Assembly: GCA_051294905.1 (NCBI GenBank)
Contig: CM119373.1
Span: 870,001 to 934,000, forward strand
From: Botryllus schlosseri
Taxonomy: Eukaryota
Direction: 5' to 3'
Length of the DNA: 64,000 nt
The first letter of the stretch is position 1, and the number at the start of each line of letters is the position of its first letter. A program made the translations under genes and the position numbers. The notes under the pieces were generated by a model, which was not told the origin of the DNA, made no database searches, and saw only the letters and a list, made by a program, of their open reading frames with translations. Shown in pieces: positions 2,420 through 50,058 of the stretch.

Positions 2420-3641
2420 TAGAGCCCGACCGATTATCGGCTCACCGATAATATCGAGTCGATATCACACTTGGAAAGAAATGTCGGTATCGGCCATTGG
2501 AGGTCAAAAAATATCGGATATTTTCGTGACGTCACAACATGGTCGTAGGGAGTCAGAGAAGACGCGAAGTCTTCACTGAATGTCAGTAAATTATAAAGAT
2601 AAATGGCCAAGCTGCAATGCACAATGCAATGCAATGCCCTATTGTGAAAAATATACTTTCACCGTTATGCCCCAGTGACTTTAGTGGGAATCCCCCAGCG
2701 GTGATCGAACACCAGAGACAGAGAGCAGACATCCAGTGAATGGAAAGTTCTATGCAGAAGATTTCAATCGATTCATTTGAGAAATGAAAACTTCATTCAA
2801 GCTGGACTGACCGTCGTTATGACAGAGAAAAGGGTCGCGTGTAAACATTTACTTGTACATAGTGCTGTTGGTGTCTGTGTAGGAAGCTCACAAGCCAAGG
2901 CTCGGTACGGTACCAACAAAGCGAAAAATAGCAGCAATGTATGGAGTCATCTGACTGAGGGGCCTCCATGATAAGGAATATGCGGGCATAGAGTGCAAGA
3001 AAATCAAGCAAAAAGGGAGTAGAGCCAACAATTCATACGAATGTTTTTGATTCCATAATGATCAACTGATTGTTGAAATGCTGGTCATAGTCGAAGGGAT
3101 GGGTGGAGCGGACGTGAACAATTTGAGTTGTTTTTCACATTCTCTTCAGCTTTTAATGATGTTCTGAAGGCTCCAGGTGCACTGCCAGAAGAATATCAAT
3201 ATTTGGTGGAACCAATGAAGAAAAGATCCCCTGCAGGCGTGGAACCAAAATAAACAAAGATTCCCAGTTCTTGCTCTGCTACCAACTTCGGTACCAAGTG
3301 AAAGACTGTTCACTGTGTTTATTACTGTATAGCCTACATCATTTAATAATACCACACAGGTTCACTACCTGGAGAAAACGCCGAGAAGTTCTGCTTCGTG
3401 AACTGTAATGCACAACTGCCAGACTGGTGCTACTGATATATTTTTATTGCCCCCCAGATCATTCATGTCATGTTGAGTATAGCAATGGCTGTAAACATGT
3501 TCAATTAAATACTCTTGAGGTGTTGATTATGCGCCTTGAGATAGATTCCATATCTTTTGAATATCGGCTGAATATATCGGAGTTATCGGTGAAGGTACTG
3601 GATATCGGTTTCGGCTCCAATCCAATATCGGTCGGGCTCTA
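2420..3641 (+). mobile_element. Internally deleted hAT (Ac-like) element
   Basis: TIR tagagcccgaccgat/atcggtcgggctcta; 8-bp TSD atcatgac at 2412-2419 and 3642-3649; gatatcgg subterminal repeats. Confidence 0.93.
2777..3420 (+). pseudogene. hAT transposase remnants (BED finger and C-terminal dimerisation domain)
   Basis: VACKHL...YGTNKAKNSSNVWSHL is BED-like. DPLQAWNQNKQRFPVLAL...PTSVPSERLF matches the hATC motif. The region carries stops and deletions. Confidence 0.8.
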
Positions 3642-4704
3642 ATCATGACAACTATTAGAACTCCACTAGTGTTGCGCAAGCTTCGTAAGCATTATTACGC
3701 CAAACATAGCTAGAGTACTGCCTTTTTCCTGTTACGAGAACATTACTAACCCGTTCTCATTGGCTAAAGCATTACAATCGCATTCGTTGTTACGCATTTT
3801 TGGGTATAAAAACCCACGTTTTCTCTGTTGCGGCCCTTGAGATCTGAGATTCACCTCAGCGCCTGACGTACTTTTCTTTGCAATACATCCGACCGAGAGG
3901 ACTCGTGTGAGTTAAGAAATCACCGCCTAAGACAGCAAGCTACCAGCAAGTCGTTCAGCTAGCTACCTACTGCTCCAGCACGGCACAGCCATCTGTTACA
4001 TGGTCGCCTTCGAGTTCGGTAGCTCACAACGCAGCCTCCTGTTACATGGTGCCATTGATTTCGGTAACGCAGCTTACTGTTACAATGGGAGCATCTGCAA
4101 TACATTGGCATGGTGATGTCACCACGCTCCCACAGCTATGTCAAGGAAAAAGACACTCGCCGCATCATGAATGCTAGACGAATCGACAAAACTGACGCAT
4201 TCTGTAAGCGGACGAGATTGGAAGAATCGGTAAGAAACGAACGACTTGAAAAGGAAGAAGGCAAAACATAGTTGCAGGACTAGAAGGCCCAGAAGAATGT
4301 ATAAAAAAAAATCAACTACTTCTGTGTGTTTTACATATTTTAAAAATATGCCCTTTTTCTCAAAACTTCGCTTTTTGATACCCTAGATCATTCTTGAGGT
4401 CTAAAAAATAGTCAGCCATTTCACACGAAAAGCACATTGTGTGCAAATTTCAGACAGATTGCTCTCCTAGTATTAAAGTTCTAGGTGTTTGACTGATTTT
4501 CCATTTCGAGGGGTAACTTCAGCTTAGCCCCATAAGTCGTTAGTTACTGAAGAAAATTGAAGAATAGCGGCCTGGTATAAAAAATGATCATAGTAGTCGA
4601 CAAGCACCATCAATTCCTCAACACAAACCATCAAATTACGGATTCAATGAAAAAGAAACAATGCTCGTCGTCTATAGGGGATGTTTCTCAGTTTGTTGGA
4701 CCGA

Positions 4705-4930
4705 TGTACAGAAGGGGTCAACAACGAAGTACTATTTTACATGAGTACTCGCGTTATTATGTGTTTAGGCTATTTCCACTTCTACTTGGCGCTTTGTAGG
4801 CATCTTTTTAGGCATTACTCTCTTCATTGACTTATTGCATCCCCTTTAGACTCGAGGTTTTCATAATACCTGGGCAAAATAGCCCTACCCACGGTAACTA
4901 AATAATTTTTTGGGGGGAAATTGCACTTAC
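4705..4930 (+). repeat. Partial copy of an AAGTA/TACTT-rich non-autonomous repeat family
   Basis: Clear similarity to 31155-31670 and 39607-39997 (tttaggctac..ccacttctactt; cacggtaactaaat). Confidence 0.75.
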
Positions 4931-6353
4931 TGTCGCGCTGTTATCGAAAAGTATGATCAGGCACCGCCACCTAGAATCTGCCCTCCGAGTCCGAATTATC
5001 GGCATGGTCCGAACAATCGGAGATACGCACGGGGACATTGTTATAGTCATTGTTTTGCGGTCATCCGATTTTTCTGAACGATGCAGATTTTAGATGTTGA
5101 GGGTGATTTTTCGTCAAAGTCCTGAGCGTGATCATGTCTCAATTTATATTTTTGGAATCAGTGCTACAGTAGCTTTCGATCAAGACCAGATTCAGTGAAT
5201 TCTGCGCCCTGGAAGATAACTTATGAAATGCCAGAAATACAACAGTCGCTACCGCAAAACAATCCTGAATCCAGCCTCAGCGAAGCAGAACCAAGCTGCA
5301 AAATCGGTTGTTGCCATTCCACGATTTCATTCGATAGTAAAAACACTAGGAGCGTGCACCACTGGTCAGAGTTGAGGTATATACATTACTAACCTACGGA
5401 TAGTTACGCAACTCCCATCGTTAGGCCCGGGCAAGCAGTGTCTCTTACTGCTGATCAATCTAAAATCAGCACAATTGGTAGTTCTATAGCTTGCGACCCG
5501 AGGCTTTAATAAAACTGGTTTTAATCGAGAGCTTCTGTCGCACCGATTCCGAAAATACAAATTAAAGTATTGTCAGGTAAATGGAACCCCGTCCCCGCCA
5601 AAACAGCCCTTAAAGTCTGAATGAAAATCGGCAATAGTTCCGAACAGTTGCTTGACGTAACTGGCCAACGGCCACTATTATGCTCATTGTGTTGCGGCGG
5701 TACCATTGTTGGAACAATACTGATTATCGGACTTGAAGACCAGTTTTATTAAATTTCAGCCTCCGGGTCGCAAGCTATAATACCACAATTGTGCTGCTTT
5801 TCAGAGATGCCACTGGGATATTTCGGAAAAACCCAGATGTGGAGGCGAAATAAACCTAGAAAAACCCAGATCCTATATTTCACACAAAAGTTACGAGATA
5901 GCTGTGAAAGTGGAGCCTGATAGCCGACGAATACACTCATACAGTCATTGAAGCCTTTAATATTGAATTTACAACCGTTCATAATACACATTTTGCTTGG
6001 TTAACACTGCGAATCGCACAAAAAAACATGTTGTTTTCCTCTCGACACATCGCAATGATACAATTGGGGCGCAGCGTGAATAGTTGATAATGTACCGGTA
6101 CTAATTATATCATCGCGCTGCGAAAGTTCAATGCAATGCCGTCCATTCCCTATTTCTAAGGATGATTTCATGTATTTTCAGCGATCTGAACAGATTGAAA
6201 GTAGCTTTCGATTGATTAATCCTACGACCATCACTTTTATTTGGAATAATCACAGACCAATGTATAGTGGAAATAAATGACTGCCAAATCATGAAATTCA
6301 GGGTTAGCGTAAGGGACTTAGGGTTAGAATGTGCTGATAACCAATGCCTCTGA

Positions 6354-17683: not shown

Positions 17684-18302
17684 TATGCTATCCATCTATA
17701 TTCTACAAGAAATGTAAAAATATTTGTATGATGCTTATGTAAAAATATTTGTATGATGCTGTACACGGTACACAGGTAAAAATGACACCCGCTTATTCCG
17801 ATCTTCTATATTTCAACTAAATAGGCATAGTAGACATCTAGATATAGGTCGTACGTGCCACTTTGGCCCCATAAAACTGCAGATAATAGCTCTTTCCAAA
17901 TTCACCTTGAGAAACGCAACTATAGGGCACGCTGCACAGGTGCACATACTACGATGCAGTAGTCATTTCCCGCGCGAGCCGAACCCGCATATTCCCAAAA
18001 TAAGAATATGATTGACAGGCGAAGCGGGTCCGGATGCGTTCAGATCCAAATTTTTGGGAACCGAAGTTTTGGAAATTATGTCGACCAGACCAGCCTCGGG
18101 ATTCTCGACTGCGTTCACATTGCTGGCATTCTGAGGATTATTCTGGGAAATTGTGTTCTGAAAATTAGGTATGAACGCACCCTTATGTTGTTCCGTGCAG
18201 CGACACCGCGTGTAAGGCTGCGACTTTCATTTTCTGCAGTCATTTGCTACTTGGATCTGTGCGTATTCTGCTAACTATTGGACACCGGAATATCTACTTT
18301 AG

Positions 18303-18962
18303 GATTGGAAATAACGATAAAAAAGGAAATAACGATAAAAAACAAGCTATAAAGAAAACTGTATGACTCGAAAGTAAAAAGGAAATGATGCTGTCATACT
18401 CTGCCCTCATGCAAAAGACCTACATTTGCTGCTTAGGTATACATGAAAGTCATGTCAAACAATTGCTGAAGACGATTATTCCTGGAGCTACCGACTGGGG
18501 AGTTTCTAGGTATAAGAGTGTATTGATAACCGATGATGACCTGAATCTAATTAAATATATATGCAATGCTGTATTGAAGTGGGCTGTCAAAAAGTTTCCG
18601 GTTGAATGGAGAGATTGGTGTAAAAACCAAGTATCTAAGAACCCTCTACCATTAGAATTCGAACCCAAAACCAGAGGAGGACTGATATGCCCAAATGAAA
18701 GATTTGTTACTAATGGAAGAATTTGAAATTTATTTTCAAAAGCAAAAAAACTCAGTTTATTGACATGAGAAGCATTCTCGGAAATGTCAATATTCCATTA
18801 CATCATTCACATTGTGACCAGACCCACGAGAAACTCCTCATTTCTAAATATGTGAGAACAAGAACTCATACATACTGCCGGGCTGCGACGAGAAATTATC
18901 ATGAACAATAGAAATATAAATCTAGAAGTTCCAAAGCACTGCGAGATCATATCCGAGTTTGA
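18303..18962 (+). pseudogene. Stand-alone gene resembling the P-transposase C-terminal region (RGGL motif)
   Basis: ITDDDLNLIKYICNAVLKWAV...LPLEFEPKTRGGLICPN, ending SSKALRDHIRV*. Homologous to 44188-45078. Confidence 0.7.
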
Positions 18963-19009
18963 ATATGGTCAACATTATCGAAACAGGTTCTGACATATCA
19001 TAAACACAT

Positions 19010-19195
19010 GCTACTTATTTCCTTTGCATATACTTGCGTTTCCATTTTATATTGCTTACTGATATTTTCTTTAAGTGTGCACCGTTTCTGCGCGGCAGTC
19101 TGAATCTTGCGCTGCCGATTATAGGCGCAAAGCCTGTCTAATGGGGTTATCTGCGGATGCTAATCGTTGTAATTCGTACACATATTCCATGACTT
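19010..19195 (-). pseudogene. C-terminal remnant of a P-like transposase, continuing at ~23001-23060 across the piggyBac
   Basis: Reverse strand reads QRLASADNP...AYNRQRKIQ...SNIKWKRK. Joined across the TTAA site it reads IEHVIALLSHGICVRIT. Confidence 0.55.
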
Positions 19196-38019: not shown

Positions 38020-38828
38020 TTTAAAAGAATTGTTCGAACATTTCTTTTAGAAGTTTGCGGTCTTTCTCCCCTTCCTCTCGAATTGCCTGCACCACGTCAT
38101 CAATATCTGAAATCGAAGGATTATATATGATTATCTTACGCCAAAGCAATAAACCGAATATTAGGGAGATCTATACCGCTATGCCTTTTCCGCTTTCCTC
38201 TTCTTTCTACTCTTTCTTCTTTTTCTTCATCCGAAACGGAATCATCTAGCACACATACAACAGTCGGCGTTGACAGGGTCGCCTCATCTTCTGATGCGTC
38301 ACTATCATCATCACTATGATCTTTGCTTGATGGGCTCTGAAAGGTATCTACTCCTCTGCTTTGCAATGCATGTAGAAACAATTAAATATGACCAGTTACA
38401 TACCGTACTCTCTGACTATAAGCTTCTCAGCACTTATCTTACCACCGTTCGAGGCCGGGAGCCAAGCAATTCATTCATTTTTAAGTAATGCGGCCACGTG
38501 AGCTGCTTAGCGCCCATCCCCGACACCTGGACCGCCTGTTTAATCTTATAATAGGTTCTTTTCATCGCCTTCCATTTATCGCGACATGATGTCCTATAAT
38601 GATAGAACAGTATATAAGACCAAGACTGCAACGAACGTAAAGGGCTATTATTTACCACTCCTTCTGAATCCCTCGACTTTTTAATTCCTCCGAGACATCG
38701 CTGAATAGTTTTCGGTTCCTCTGCCGCCTTTTGTCTATTTCGTCAATCAATTGACGCTCGCCGATAATCGCTATCATTGTTTCTGCCTCCTGCTTCGGCC
38801 AGGTAATGTATTGTTTTTTTTCCGACAT
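38020..38828 (-). CDS. Spliced Myb/SANT (trihelix) partner gene, convergent with the transposase
   Basis: MSEKKQYITWPKQEAETMIAI...RQRNRKLF and CRDKWKAMKRTYYKIK...WPHYLKMNELLGSRP, followed by an acidic linker. May carry a lesion near 38650. Confidence 0.8.
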
Positions 38829-40605: not shown

Positions 40606-40849
40606 TATAGACAATGTATATAGACTCGTAGTATAGCCAATGGCAGCACGTTTATTACCGAATTATTACGAAACGAAATGTAGAAAAAACAAAATTACGA
40701 AAGTGTAGAAAAAACAAAATTACGAAAGTGTAGGCAGACTTCGACAACTAGATAATTCTAAGGAGTCAAATTTCAATAAATTAGAGCGAATGCCAGTTTT
40801 CCAATTGTAATCTGAAAATTTTGCAGTTGTCCGAGTCTGACTTACGCGC

Positions 40850-41990
40850 TCATTTTGCACTGGGTATTGTCTGGCAATTTCTTGCACAATGTCCGAAAAG
40901 TAATGTTTTCTTTCTCTGGTCCGACGCCACATCCACTCATCGATATACGACGGTACGAAACCCCGTACCGAACCATTCATTCGCTTTAACTTCCGTTTGC
41001 AGTCTTGCCAAAGACTCTCAATATTGTTCGTGTGAACCCCTTGGAGGAGTCTTAAACAGATGTTTGTGGCAGACTGTTTTATGCGTGTAGCCGTTGCCCA
41101 TTCCTGATAAGGAAACAGAAATGTTTTAATAACATTCACCATTATCGCTGTATAAGATTTCATTTACCGGTTATGCACCGATACGCTGCCCATTCATCCG
41201 ACCAAATTTCGGTGCCTGGAGCAATATATTGTCGAATAAGGGGCAACAGGGTGTTTGCGTCCCGGCGATCGACGAATCGCATAAAGCATTGGCTACATAA
41301 CACATTATATACTTCAAGTTTTGCTGACGTTGGATTTTCATTTTCTGTACACAAACTTTGTCGTAAGGTCCACGCCTCCACAAATCCATTGCTGTGAACT
41401 CGGTCTTGCTTGGGCGTTGGCACCACGGCCCCTCTTAGCGATTACCGATTCGTCGATTGCCACCACATGTCCCGGGCCACCGATGACACCGGAACCGCGT
41501 AACAGCTCGGCTGAGCAGATCTGGAATATGCCACAACGCTTTGGAGTAAATACAATGCCTTACTTTACAATAGAATTTGGGTAATACCTCCCTGAAAAAC
41601 TGGCACCAGTCGATGCAGGTCCTGTTGCTTATTTTTAAGTTCGTCGATAATCTTGACCTGGTCGTGGTCCTTGCACCAGAAGTACAGCATGTACAAAAGT
41701 TTCGTCGGGGTGAAATTACTTTTGTAAAAAATGAGCCATGCCGGATGCTAATGAAATCTGAGCATTTCTGTGAATGATAAATGTCAAGAGAGCCATTAGT
41801 TTCTAGCTCAAACAAATAATTAAAAATTTCATACCGGGCAACGCCAAGCAACCTTATCGTTCACGTCCCTGAATTTTTCTGCGCAGGGCACTTGGCATTT
41901 CGGGCAATTCTTCTGTTATGCCAGCAGTCCATGTTCTCGGAAAAACAGAATGGCTGCGCGGTCGCTTGACAGCACGCCCATTTTCACCAG
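40850..41990 (-). pseudogene. Merlin (IS1016/ISXO2-like) transposase pseudogene
   Basis: SIRHGSFF; DWCQFFRE; IGGPGHVVAIDES; LLPLIRQYIAPGTEIWSDEWAAY; GVHTNNIESLW...SYIDEWMWR. Confidence 0.92.
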
Positions 41991-42418: not shown

Positions 42419-43254
42419 GTCTCCTCATGTGTCCAAATTCTCCATTTTCCAAAGTCAGATTCAACTACACTCAATCAATCAATCAACAAACAATCAATCA
42501 GCTGATTCAACAGCAATCTCGAAACATTCCAGTGACTGCGATAGTAAATAGACGACATCGAAGACCAAGCGCGGGAGATTCTCTGCCAACCGTGAATTAC
42601 TCCGCCAAGCGGTCGAGGCAACCACTTGGTAGAGTAATTTTGCTGAGTCGTGAAATCGATGCCCATATATGGTCACTCTGCCAACGAAACCTGCACATGG
42701 AAACGGCTTAAATGTTTTGACCGACAGCGCTCCTAGTGACGCGGTATCGAACACGCGTAACAAGCAACCTCTCCAGCTGTATTATTACGTCGCCGTAGGC
42801 TCTTGTATCAAACACCCGTACCAAGCAACCTCTCCGGCTGTATTAGTACGTCGCCGTAGGCTCTCGTATAGGTTGTGATGTAGGTAGATTCGCCTCAAAT
42901 GCCTGTAGTTTTGCAAGTTTAGAATTTATACTGTGTTATTATGGATGTATTTATCTGATGATATTTCTAAGTCATACGAGAGCTGACGTCCCCATTCAAG
43001 TCGATATGCAAGCAACTATTACTAAATTAATGCTATTCCATCCTCAAGATCCTCTATACTATCTTCTTTACTTTTCATTCAGTGTGCATTGCATGCCTCC
43101 TCTTTACATCGTCTAGGTCAAGGTGGGTGTCTTATTCCATAGACTACTCCAAGTCGCTTCGACACCTTCCTATCTTTTCATTGTATCGCATTTTAGGTGA
43201 CGTCATGGATTGAAAAAAATGGTTTCTTTGCAATGAACTCTATTTGACTTTCAG

Positions 43255-43724
43255 GTACAGCCATGCGCGATACCGAACCCGCTCTGTCCAAATTCATCCT
43301 TCATATGAATAAGTGGTATGACGCGATGAAAAGGGGATGAAAATTCAAACCTGAGCGACGACCATTCTATTCCCCTCATGAAGACAGTTTACACTGGCTA
43401 GAGGATGATTTTATTACCTACCTGCATGAATGGCGTGCACGGGCACAATCCCTAGTTCTCCCGGGCGACGTAAATCGATCGCTGATGCTCCTTAGCCGCC
43501 CTACCTAGGAAGGGTTGAAGTGGCTACCAAGTCGATGGTAGCAATTATTCAGGAATGCCTATCAACGGCGTATCAATTACGATCCATTGGAGTCCAATTT
43601 TGGTCGACAGCGATGCTCACAGACTGACTTGCCTTCAGTAGCACTCTTCAGCGCAAACTCGCGCTCTGCTGAGTTGCATCACTTTGCCCATATTTCTGGC
43701 GCTAATATACAGCCAACCCCCTAG
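43255..43724 (+). pseudogene. 3' part of a P-like (THAP9-related) transposase
   Basis: KFILHMNKWYDAM; LHWLEDDFITYLHEW; MLLSRPT*EGL; DPLESNFGRQR (43581-43613); stop at 43722-43724. Confidence 0.85.
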
Positions 43725-44187
43725 TAAACTTTCTCCGCATATCTTTGTGATGAGACTCTTGGAGATGAAGGTAGAATATACATTTGAATAATGTATTCAT
43801 ATTGAATTAACCCCGAATATTTTCGGCAGACACTAATCTTTGGTAATTTGTCAGCAACTTCAAGACAATTGAAAATAGGTCATTAAAATGGTATATGAAC
43901 TATCATCGGCCACGTTCACCAACCTAAGCTACGCCAATAAAAGCAATTCGTGGTATCATCTAAAATATAGGCTCATGGAGCTAAATGACTGTCTTCGATT
44001 CGATTTTTTGAAATTTCATGCCAGTGATTGATATGCAATATGTTCTTTTCAATTCTAAACTAGTTGCTGTCAATTACCCATAAGTGCTACCATAAAATAG
44101 CACGGTATATTTAATTAAGATTATAAAATTGAATTACATTTTTATTGTGAGAATAAATATCACCAGACCAACATAAAATTTAAATCC

Positions 44188-45078
44188 TTAGGACTTGTGT
44201 AAATCCTTTAATGATTTACGGAGCGAAGTAGATTTGCGGCTTTTGGACTTAGCTAACTTGCTGTATTCAAGCACCCGCTTCCAATTATAATCTAATTCTA
44301 ACTCCGCGCACGGATTAAGCGGGGGATTAGTAATTGCGTGATACCGTTCCAACTTTCACTCTTCTCATGAAGTTTATTGATTATTCGCTGCTCGTTGACC
44401 GATTCAGAGGACATTGATCTTCGAAGTAAGTATTCTCCCTCCACCATCAGCAGGGAGAATGAATTCTTTGGTGCAAGCAAATATCCCCTGTCGATTCTTG
44501 AGAATTCAAAAGGTAAGGTACTGTCAGAGGATATTTGCGATCGAATCCAATTTGCGTCTTCACCCGAACTATTCCTCAGTCTCCAGACTTCCCACTTTAG
44601 TAATGCGCCTGACATATATTTGAGAACCCTTTTGTCATCATCAGTAAGAACGATACTTTCAATGACGGATTTTGAAGAATTCAAATTTTTTGAATTCAAC
44701 GGTAGCTGAATTATTTTGGGGACTAGTCGTTATGATGCGCTTCACAGTCATATCAGATATTTCAGAACGACTTTCACAATATCCTTTGCCGAGCATTTCC
44801 GAGTATTTCTCGAACATTGTAGACTTTGTTCCGAAAATTTGAAACAAGTCTCCCAGTATTTTGTCATGAATGCCATCTGCCATTGATACGCCCGAATCGA
44901 CCAAGGCGATTGCCGGATTTTTTTCTATTTCTGACAGTTGAGTGTCTCCAAAGCACACTTCAATTGTGAGGGCAGGATGGAAGCTGCTTGTAGAGGCCTC
45001 CGGGACGCTGCTTGTAGAGGCCTCCGAAACCTCCATAACGGCTGGGTCTTGTGAAGTGACATCGTCTTCATCCACCTG
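44188..45078 (-). pseudogene. Stand-alone gene resembling the P-transposase C-terminal region, convergent with the transposase
   Basis: VLTDDDKRVLKYMSGALLKW...LPFEFSRIDRGYLLAP, ending KSTSLRKSLKDLHKS*. Acidic N-terminal part. Confidence 0.72.
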
Positions 45079-45309
45079 GAATGATAGAAATTCACGTCAA
45101 GATATGCTGCTACAACATGACAGCAACTACGCTTGTAATGTGTGCTGTACCTGTGTAGTGGGAGTATGCGCATTACGCATGGGCTGTATAATAGACGTTC
45201 TACTAAGACTAAGCAATATCAGATGTTTTCCGAGAGCAAGACACTCACGTCAACGAATATTCTTAGCAATTTCTCTTCACTGAATTCCATATTAATGTGT
45301 ACTCTACAC

Positions 45310-46744
45310 CAGAGTTGGATCAATTGTAATTTGTAATGTAATTTAATGTAATTAATTACATATTTCAATGTAATTGTAATGTAATTGTAATTGAAGCATT
45401 TTTATTTTGTGTAATTGTAATTCTAATTGTAATTTGACAAAAATTTTGCTCAATTACAATTTCAATTACATTAAATTGCTATTGAGACCTGACAAGCACA
45501 ACATAAAATAATTGACTTATAATGCATTCTCTTTAAATGTCGACAAGGAATTTGGTGGATCCATTCGCGGAAGCCCTTGACTGCGCCCTTGCGGGCGAAG
45601 TTTTTTTATTTTTACCGCTATGCTGGCCTCGGCTGCCATTGTATACAATTATTAGATTACTAACCAACGGATGGATTCGCAACACGTGACTCACGATTGA
45701 ATACGCCAAGAAGCGAACTGCTGAGCCGGATAAAAGCAGCAGAATTGATAGTCCCATAGCTAACGATCCAAGCGTCGAAATTTGATATGTATGGTCCTAA
45801 TCGAAAGCTAGTGTCGCACTGATTCCGCAATAAAAGTATATTTCCAGGCAATGGTACCATCCCAAAATAGTCGTGAAAGTCTGGGAGTCGGCATTGTTCT
45901 GAACAATCGCTGGGAGTAATTGGTCATTGTTGTGGTCATGCTGCTGCGGCGCTCTCACTTTTCAGAACAGTCGGCCTTAAACGGCTATTTTGGAGCAGTT
46001 ACATTGCCCTGACGAGATTTTAATTTGTATTTTCGGAATTAGTGCATCAATAGCTTACGATAAAGACCAGATGCATCAAATTTGGATGCTTGAATCGCCA
46101 GCTCTAGGACTACAAAGTTTGCTGCTTTTAGCCGGCTATGCAGTACGTTTGTCGCAGCATTCATCAGTGACTCACATCTTGCGCATCTATCCGTGGGTTG
46201 GCAATCTACAATACGATTTCAGATCACGATGCTGCATCGTTACTTCGTCTGGCTAACTAACCAGACCACTGGATATTATATAACGTCTTATCTGACAAAG
46301 CACGGTTTTGTTTTCACCCCTCATCCTAATTCCTACGTCCCTCGATAAAAATAATATTATTTCTTTAATTATATACTATGTACGCAAATCCAACCCGTGC
46401 ATGATTATAATACTTTTTCAACGACATACTGCATACTGGAATAGTTCGAAAACGTTTTTCTTTTATTAATTACCGGGTATTTGCGTATCATGAATGAAAC
46501 ATGAATACTTGAATTGTTGTTAATTACGAAGCTACGGTTGTCAAGGAGCACGGTTGAATTTATGATTATTCAATTACATGTTCAACAGCAGCAATTGTAA
46601 TTGTAATTGTAATGTAATTGAAGCGTGCAAGGAGTAATTGTAATTGTAATTTGATATTTTGAGCATGGAGTAATTGTAATGTAATTGAAACATGTATGAA
46701 AGTAATTGTAATTGAACTGAAATAATGTAATTGATCCAACTCTG
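45310..46744. mobile_element. Non-autonomous hAT-like element with GTAATT subterminal arrays
   Basis: TIR cagagttggatcaatt/aattgatccaactctg; 8-bp TSD ctctacac at 45302-45309 and 46745-46752. Confidence 0.93.
45652..46208. repeat. ~560-bp imperfect palindrome of the hairpin family
   Basis: tagattactaaccaacggatgga pairs with tctatccgtgggttggcaatcta. The centre resembles 1754-1995. Confidence 0.8.
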
Positions 46745-47065
46745 CTCTACACTAGGAGTGTTAAACTCAATTCCGGTCGCGGGCCGGATTCAGACCTTCA
46801 AACGTCTCGCAGCCCGGATCGGTAAAGTGTGTTTTAACACACACAAAATGAAGTCACTGAGTAAACCAGCTCACGTTACCGGGATACGCTACCCCTTGAA
46901 CGACAAGACTTTCAATTTTTTTTTATATTTGTTCTGTTAGATGTCATATTCCATGCACCTAAAGCTTCTGATGATCGGATAAGTGAGTTCTGGCGACGGA
47001 CAGACTAACCGACGAACCTGTGGGGCTCATGCACTTTTGGACCGAAGTCAGTACATGGTATATAC

Positions 47066-49429: not shown

Positions 49430-49840
49430 AATGAATACCAAAAGGAGAACTTACTGGTTCAAGAAAGCGTGCAATCCAGTTAGCGAGTTTGTGGTATGAC
49501 GAGCCAACCATTGAGAGTATTGGACGCAATGTCACATTAGATTAATGCGTCTTAGGTAGACCATACAAGCGCGGGCGCATGGATCCTACTGCTCTAGCTT
49601 GATCGTAGTCCGTAGATGATATTTTCACTGCTTTCTTTGCAGTCAGAAGTAATCGTTGCATTCTTGCTTCAATCGCGCTGGTGTTGTCAGCTGCTGGTCC
49701 AATAGCAATGAACCTTGATGTGTCGTTCAGAATGCTCCCCATCTTGCCAATGTAATCAGATTTGTCCATAATGACAATCCCGGAACCTTTGTCAGGTTTG
49801 ATGATGTGAATCGATTTGTTTGTAGTCAATACGCGCGGTC
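49430..49840 (-). pseudogene. Penelope-like reverse transcriptase fragment
   Basis: IIKPDKGSGIVIMDKSDYIGKM..ILND; PRLYGLPKTH; LRPILSMVGS. Confidence 0.85.
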
Positions 49841-50058
49841 TAAAACTCACTGTCACGATTCATTAGGCGACAATAGTTACATTTCACTACAAATATGTCC
49901 AGAAATCGGACTAATAAAAACAATTTTGGTCCGTGAATTGGAAACATGCATGTTATTTGTAAGACGAAAATAACCAACTGGGCTCGGTTCAAGCGGCAAG
50001 CTGAAAAACATGCAAATGCAAGAAAGTAATGGAAAGACGGTCGGAGTTACCAAATCAA

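Follow-up and report, generated by a model that had tools for sequence, protein, structure and literature searches.

The P elements covered in the available portions of the literature are described as single-gene transposons, and the role of the C-terminal domain (CTD) of their transposase is disputed: the structure shows a grip on donor and target DNA, whereas a 2026 preprint presents the domain as dispensable or inhibitory. In the Drosophila complex, as set out in the accessible text of the structural study, the CTD is attached through a disordered, flexible linker; it is positioned between RNase H and another subunit's GTP-binding domain, touches the looped-out transposon end and turns a basic helix towards the target (PMC7776569). 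The accessible text of the preprint names K637 as a DNA contact of the Drosophila transposase and reports that, upon deletion of the CTD, the Drosophila protein is still active and integration by THAP9 rises by about 60% (bioRxiv 10.64898/2026.08.31.747927). Two further publications treat the CTD, in the sections available, as part of one protein (PMC10983969; PMC10824691).

Elements that encode a nuclease and a separate DNA-binding partner, in varying orientations, are known from PIF/Harbinger, in which the partner is Myb/SANT-like and the TSD is 3 bp. The RAG2 protein, for its part, is made up of kelch and PHD parts. The RAG-like elements (RAGL/ProtoRAG) carry two convergent genes within one TIR pair, according to the excerpted source, and the partner is RAG2-like and no detached piece of the transposase (PMC7204232). 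Kolobok (Kol0 plus KolX, with other accessory proteins) combines a transposase of the related C/DxxH group with a second protein, and in the accessible text it is given a 4-bp TTAA TSD, RR..YY ends and, for KolX, a cysteine-rich ballast fold (PMC9587614).

Here, a stretch of 64,000 nucleotides from Botryllus schlosseri (GCA_051294905.1, contig CM119373.1, positions 870,001 to 934,000) was analysed, which is referred to as the window and in which positions are counted from its first nucleotide. A preliminary description had proposed a two-gene P-like transposon at 43255..45078, consisting of a short transposase and a convergent gene (gene 2 in the following) for the C-terminal RGGL region, encoded as its own protein acting in trans.

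The window copy

The window copy, at 42.7-45.3 kb, is a dead, non-functional relic of a presumably cut-and-paste transposon of the P superfamily (Table 1). Nearly all of the first ~650 transposase codons are missing; the copy matches only bases 53-234, 2989-4930 and 5055-5159 of the intact element, and element bases 235-2988 are unmatched. In a six-frame reading the transposase exon has in-frame stops at 43338 and 43506, and it is also broken by one frameshift and small deletions; gene 2 contains two frameshifts. The TIR had no match in the window at up to three mismatches, other searches for TIRs of the copy's own were likewise blank, and the right end of the P element was not found beyond the insertion next to gene 2. 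That inserted TIR element is non-coding, has AATTGT-rich ends and an inner 178-bp inverted repeat, and is 94% identical to a copy in another locus (L037).

The remaining transposase exon holds the end of the GTP-binding insertion followed by the C-terminal part of RNase H, with the catalytic E (DPLES motif) at 43590 on the plus strand, and its intact counterpart matches PF21789 and residues 433-556 of 6p5a_A. Gene 2 exon 2 comprises an acidic start, a four-helix N-terminal domain and a homolog of the P-transposase CTD with Y..G, RG.L.P and a basic last helix. The plus-strand stop on which the preliminary description was built lies where it had been placed, 36 codons past ...GRQR (about 35 had been given), and the minus-strand frame with TDDD..LKY..GALLKW..RGYL..P..SLRKSL is present as well and ends at its stop codon. 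The proposed extent takes in both genes and is too short on one side, where gene 2 runs past 45078 into an intron and a first exon. The spacer repeat has 71-88% matches, in both orientations, in 11/11 unlinked loci tested; it has inverted arms and dominates the RNA reads over that stretch. A DNA search found three copies in the same genome, 73% identical over the whole window query. Because the window copy is a relic, the question of a two-gene element was decided on its relatives.

Table 1. Features of the decayed P-superfamily element and its surroundings in the window
Feature	Position	Strand	Remarks
Left subterminal remnant of the element, 61-bp tandem duplication	42712..42955	+	77-80% identity to bases 53-234 of the intact element L031:1015-6390; tandem repeat 42744-42869; TIR not recognisable
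Last transposase intron, GT..AG	43197..43254	+	Homologous to the RNA-spliced L031 intron 4007-4066; nearly everything 5' deleted
Last exon of CTD-less P transposase, pseudogenised	43255..43724	+	AG acceptor before 43255; natural stop TAG 43722-43724; tblastn 61% identity to residues 652-838 of the intact spliced protein
Spacer between both stop codons	43725..44187		Mostly old insert of an unrelated high-copy repeat, 43748-44135
Gene 2 exon 2	44188..45075	-	Stop at 44188; 55-94% identity to intact P0001 in three frames
Gene 2 intron, GT..AG, phase 0	45076..45248	-	Homologous intron L031:5912-6125 spliced in RNA
Gene 2 exon 1, 14 codons from ATG, acidic	45249..45290	-	Similar segment in families A, B, C, D, F, F2
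Unrelated TIR element, 8-bp TSD	45302..46752 (element 45310-46744)		Inserted 12-20 bp upstream of the gene 2 ATG

Intact elements and their transcripts

Two elements of 5376 bp (L031) and 5375 bp (L033), 98% identical to each other, have 33-bp perfect TIRs and different 7-bp TSDs. An exact 7-bp TSD is present in 12/12 CATAGCAATT-type elements (A-type TIR group) with both ends within the locus examined, and the genome contains 42 exact occurrences of the TIR pattern and 0 of a control pattern. Near-identical copies reside at different sites, each with a distinct TSD, and young copies, which are 98-99.8% identical, have perfect TIRs and TSDs and keep both genes open. Single TIR ends recur every ~20.5 kb in C17:163758-204824 and C39:28918-97657, which suggests an element end caught in a large tandem array.

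The transposase had been called short; the intact spliced protein is an open frame of 839 aa, according to a model with 10 introns, nine of them RNA-supported GT..AG introns and one an assumed first intron, and it is the window copy that lost most of the upstream codons. The protein has a THAP-like start, D458, D555, DPPH at 595 and E794, and stops 45 aa after E794. Intact copies in L031, L032 and L033 stop at the same place as the window copy, so that the early stop and the convergent second gene are natural and no product of decay; colinear single ORFs were looked for in the intact copies, which have two separate genes instead. Gene 2 consists of 14 codons and a 283-codon exon (~297 aa), the latter being open in L033; a one-base difference that breaks the gene in L031 is absent from the expressed form.

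The transposase and gene 2 are separately spliced, on opposite strands. Spliced contigs from two runs contain nine plus-strand GT..AG joints on L031, of which seven recur in X24 raw reads, and the gene 2 intron, seen as a CT..AC joint on L031, is covered by 26 reads from 24 starts in X24 and by 4 reads in X23; these reads, placed on L031 at an identity of 90-95%, do not bear on the window copy, and their libraries give no strand from depth. A search of sequencing runs gave no holder of the element recorded as RNA, which counts neither way, the RNA evidence being drawn from placed reads and contigs. The gene 2 intron is retained in X1 and X4 contigs. Read depth over gene 2 in X24 exceeds that over the transposase exons several-fold, a difference to which deleted copies may add. 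The first transposase intron (L031:1297-1597) is retained in contigs of three runs, and its in-frame joint lacks RNA support; the sole joint there has 3 reads and a GC donor, and is out of frame by our count. In the Drosophila P element, the last intron is under splicing control of transposase output, and the retained first intron could be a control of the same kind.

A transposase of the P superfamily

By its catalytic core, THAP start, TIRs and TSD, the element belongs to the P superfamily, whose TSDs range from 7 to 8 bp. A profile of 51 tail-less transposase sequences matches 6p5a_A with an E value of 2.6e-46 and runs as far as residue 564 of 569, the last transposase exon corresponds to residues 433-556 of the Drosophila transposase, and the core of family H is over the cut-offs for PF21787, PF21788 and PF21789. 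The spliced model shows the THAP pattern C..C...C..H, as do families B, C, D, F and H; exon 2 on its own gives a weak PF05485 match below the cut-off (E 0.009), and the tail-less homologs P0197 and P0198 carry PF05485. Elements bounded by TIRs, such as the perfect 33-bp repeats in L031, are found in families A, B, C, D, E, F and H, with TSDs of 7 bp in A-F and 8 bp in H.

With Drosophila melanogaster P (87-kDa transposase; 6P5A/6PE2), THAP9 and zebrafish Pdre, the element shares the THAP-like N-terminus, an RNase H domain split by the GTP insertion, DxxH and E motifs, TIRs (about 31-36 bp) beginning with CA, the 7-8-bp TSD and a CTD of the same fold. Unlike in these systems, the CTD homolog is here a separate gene, with an extra N-terminal helical domain and often a C2H2 finger, so that the single polypeptide of the canonical P element and THAP9 is absent; the transposase, whose gene has 10 introns, stops 41-94 aa after the catalytic E in the intact tail-less members. 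Searched with a CTD profile, the 839-aa transposase gives no match (E 0.19), whereas fused P transposases used as positive controls are recovered (L143 at 1e-7, P0147 at 3e-29). The TSD is 7 bp in the families with CATAG ends, as opposed to 8 bp in Drosophila and zebrafish in the available part of the structural study (PMC7776569).

Tail-less transposases (P0194-P0212; L149-L217) have a conserved GN...P.KRK tail 55-90 aa after E, found in 54/65 metagenome ORFs, which is perhaps a nuclear signal or a partner-binding site; in families A-F the tail is shorter and lacks the basic end.

Gene 2 is a stand-alone CTD homolog

Gene 2 is a stand-alone homolog of the CTD of the Drosophila P transposase. 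Searches with single sequences were blank: word searches gave no match for gene 2 and none among longer proteins for the transposase exon, the ESM Atlas gave no usable match, Pfam recognised none of the first 10 gene 2 sequences as a P CTD, and phmmer with gene 2 alone against the PDB returned chance matches only. These blanks were overcome because profiles were used. The top PDB match of a 10-sequence gene 2 profile is 6p5a_B, the CTD chain, at E 0.003, which improves to E 2.2e-9 with a 128-sequence profile, and hhalign against the CTD of fused P transposases from the same genome gives E 2e-4, and E 2e-12 at a probability of 97.7%. Tnp_P_element_C of Pfam is matched by 31/128 members at E<=0.05. 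Similarity in profile and fold thus bears out the earlier claim that the RGGL region is encoded as a gene of its own, a claim that had been staked beforehand on profile similarity to P-transposase C-termini.

The fold was compared on an AlphaFold model of P0001 (pLDDT 73.5). Foldseek ranks 6p5a_B first (probability 1.00, E 0.055), as does VIA-align, with Z 10.6 and an rmsd of 2.5 Å over 113/118 residues (model 134-262), the next match having Z 7.6. The CTD part is preceded by a four-helix domain (about 36-125) without a clear match; residues 28-129, taken from the whole-protein model, give helical-bundle matches only, at Z <=7.6.

The positions matching Drosophila Y629, G632 and L661, numbered from alignments to 6p5a_B plus the chain range, are kept in 127/128, 127/128 and 128/128 gene 2 homologs, and the final segment has a net charge of at least +5 in 119/128, counts that are partly built in and inflated, the rows having been chosen by profile search. 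The K637 match is K or R in only 68/128 and W in families A-F. A zf-C2H2 match is present in 16/128. The acidic 14-codon exon 1 and the phase-0 intron are conserved between the window (45249-45290), L125, L127, L131, L133 and L136, and molluscan and annelid homologs also begin with an acidic, tryptophan-containing segment; a docking or activation motif is possible for this first segment.

Families, arrangements and selection in the Botryllus genome

Seven TIR-bounded families (A, B, C, D, E, F and H) carry both genes, so that one TIR pair with its TSD around the two, a further point of the proposal, is a regular feature. Protein searches within the same genome turned up diverged families. Among 20 loci examined, TIRs and TSD enclose both genes in B (2 loci), C (3, plus a deleted copy), D, E, F (3) and H; the end search did not find P ends at L136-L139, L141 and L144. 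The ends are CATAG with a 7-bp TSD in A-F and CAATG with an 8-bp TSD in H. The convergent layout of the preliminary description is that of A, B, C, D, E and H, and of pairs without detected ends at L226, L227/L238 and L231. It is the commonest and not the sole one: in family F, gene 2 lies upstream on the same strand, ~430 bp from the transposase gene, with its own stop before the THAP start codon (L133:6497-7647), and a head-to-head pair is described below. Family F also has long imperfect TIRs of ~480 bp. Ordinary fused P transposases coexist in the genome (L143, L144, L225, L237), and the fused families have different termini, with L143 beginning CAGGG.

Gene 2 is under purifying selection, with dN/dS, between intact families for which dS can be measured, of 0.15 (F/F2), 0.20 (D/E) and 0.26 (A/B, near saturation), the transposase exon giving 0.09 and 0.18. 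In comparisons that involve the dead window copy, near-neutral drift is seen in the N-terminal half of gene 2 (dN/dS about 0.7). The family H gene 2 has about 140 decayed matches, which share stop codons and are probably a large non-autonomous family; one example, L234:513-2859, has long CAATG TIRs and an 8-bp TSD.

Relatives in other genomes

A search of 1.84 billion representatives with the gene 2 profile yields 416 clusters at E<=0.001. The best 150 of the 416 are all at most 454 aa long, a length that alone proves little, many of these sequences being gene-caller fragments; the RNase H part is present in 1/150, and in 1/74 gene 2 clusters by Pfam. Species names, obtained for 8/30 clusters looked up, are Styela clava, Littorina saxatilis, Pecten maximus, Mytilus (two clusters, several copies), Owenia fusiformis, Tegillarca granosa and Batillaria attramentaria; one tunicate, several molluscs and one annelid thus have annotated stand-alone CTD homologs. 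Of 21 longer proteins homologous to the transposase exon, 20 stop 47-94 aa past the E, and a CTD match is present in 0/21. Viral contigs yielded no relative.

In metagenomes, a CTD ORF accompanies 20/80 tail-less transposase loci, always on the opposite strand (19 convergent, and L178 head-to-head with gene 2 at L178:2696-3724); no CTD ORF was found in a reversed-sequence control, and none of the 80 loci was fused. The pairs in L178, L188 and L189 are intronless. Where at least 1300 bp follow the stop, the CTD ORF is present in 18/28 loci and absent from 10/28. A tail of more than 120 aa was found in 0/65 metagenome ORFs with the E motif. In L215 and L218 inverted repeats flank both genes, with no clear TSD. 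The layout, already conserved in intact Botryllus copies, recurs in other taxa, as a linked pair in metagenome contigs and as stand-alone CTD homologs in named invertebrates, a point that the preliminary description had set as a check.

The transposase and gene 2 trees of 18 linked pairs, a set from which three were dropped for a short last exon and seven frameshifted, partial or duplicate loci were left out, are nearly congruent (Mantel rho 0.60, 0/5000), and a 12-pair subset gives rho 0.63 (1/5000). The matching trees reflect shared descent of linked genes, not contact. The number of changes in the split state is 2 on a short transposase alignment, with long-branch warnings (L235 dropped, no E motif), and 1 on a longer alignment, with support 66/43 (P0213 ungrouped); these transposase trees are unrooted and without Drosophila P and THAP9, and support one origin of the split neither way.

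How the two proteins might work

The best explanation, which we hold with moderate confidence, is a two-gene P element whose gene 2 protein likely docks onto the transposase-DNA complex in trans and supplies the DNA contacts of the CTD. The transposase would cut and join with its own D458/D555/E794 triad, and the split would fall in the flexible linker between RNase H and CTD. For the CTD protein, to which a helical domain and, in many taxa, a C2H2 finger have been added, we propose a place between RNase H and the GTP-binding domain, from where it would grip the transposon end that is looped out and, through its basic last helix, extend to the target DNA; a promoter of its own would let its amount tune transposition. 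Such a two-subunit transpososome is favoured because the split would fall in the linker and because the Y629/G632/L661 matches and the basic end are kept. Against it stand the K637 match, kept as K or R in only 68/128, the absence of a CTD ORF from 10/28 metagenome loci with room downstream, and the near-neutral drift in the N-terminal half of gene 2.

A somewhat unlikely reading makes gene 2 a regulator and not a subunit, which damps integration, competes for ends, or governs the element's transcription or its choice of targets, with the tail-less transposase acting on its own. In the accessible preprint text, the Drosophila transposase is active and THAP9 integrates better without the CTD (bioRxiv 10.64898/2026.08.31.747927), so that the domain may be dispensable or inhibitory and a regulatory role stays alive. 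The lost K637 match in families A-F, the gained N-terminal helical domain with its acidic N-terminus, the zf-C2H2 matches and the deeper reads over gene 2 in X24, to which deleted copies may contribute, point in the same direction. The CTD core and the basic, target-facing helix are, however, kept across very divergent families, and the gene pair is still together despite saturated synonymous divergence; were gene 2 a repressor only, more frequent loss would be expected. It is very improbable that the two genes are rejoined at the RNA level, by trans-splicing or read-through, into one ordinary P transposase: the genes of family F share a strand at close distance, and rare joints may escape at low read depth, but each gene has its own ATG and stop, in F the CTD gene comes first and is closed by a stop ahead of the THAP start codon, none of 8 runs showed a joint that links the transposase exon to the gene 2 exons, and both the GN...P.KRK transposase tail and the first exon of gene 2 are conserved.

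Least credible is a decay product, in which a single-ORF transposase was disrupted by an inversion or insertion and intact P elements then passively multiplied the disrupted form. The window copy is dead and has a foreign repeat in its spacer, and the genome also harbours fused P transposases (L143, L144, L225); nevertheless, young copies with perfect TIR and TSD keep both frames open, gene 2 is spliced, occurs in three relative arrangements and is present in many taxa, and the fused families differ in termini. The dN/dS values well under 1, together with the conservation between genomes, already refute passive decay. The spacer repeat as the cause of the split is likewise ruled out, as it is absent in families B and C, whose spacers are only ~100 bp.

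If the two-gene element with a docking CTD protein is placed in a wider frame, it might represent a large and old marine-invertebrate branch of P elements with a two-subunit transposase, in which the DNA-holding CTD is a separately transcribed, freely repositioned subunit; the two-gene state may even be ancestral, in which case Drosophila P and THAP9 would have arisen when the accessory gene was fused onto the transposase. We regard this scenario as a whole as rather doubtful.

Comparison with other two-gene elements

As in RAG-like elements, two convergent genes lie within one TIR pair, but the transposase is P-type, its profile matching only 6p5a_A in the PDB, and the model of the partner is all-helical. 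With Kolobok the element has in common a related transposase group and a second protein; it differs in its variable 7-8-bp TSD, its CA..TG ends and the all-helical P CTD, and the invariant columns of gene 2 include no conserved cysteines. As for the Myb/SANT-like partner of PIF/Harbinger, no Myb/SANT family is among the best 25 Pfam families for 128 gene 2 members, and the TSD of 7-8 bp differs from the 3 bp of that group.

No description of a two-gene P element was found in the full-text literature, with Repbase, subscription journals and some supplements out of reach, and two-ORF P families may have been annotated before. New here are the RNA splicing of both genes, the three arrangements, the selection estimates, the matching trees and the named taxa. 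P thereby joins the superfamilies that have two-gene members. A split that is natural, selected and widespread makes the CTD addable, removable and titratable in trans, and its role directly testable, and the split element could give a two-component, switchable transposon tool. By sequence similarity, a putative function would be assigned to a large set of invertebrate proteins now called "uncharacterized" or "C2H2-type" (the 416 clusters).

Other sequences in and around the window

On the minus strand at 40720-41860, the window contains a fragmented transposase with matches to PF12762 (IS1595-like), which we take to be probably a Merlin-type element. Two short minus-strand frames presumably resemble a Myb/SANT-like domain (38434-38742) and the start of a retroelement reverse transcriptase (49542-49859), the latter having no Pfam match. 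At 18182-19082 lies a decayed family F fragment, 88-92% identical to L133, which comprises most of a gene 2 and subterminal sequence, and F-like transposase pieces are found just upstream of the window (L239:4479-6168).
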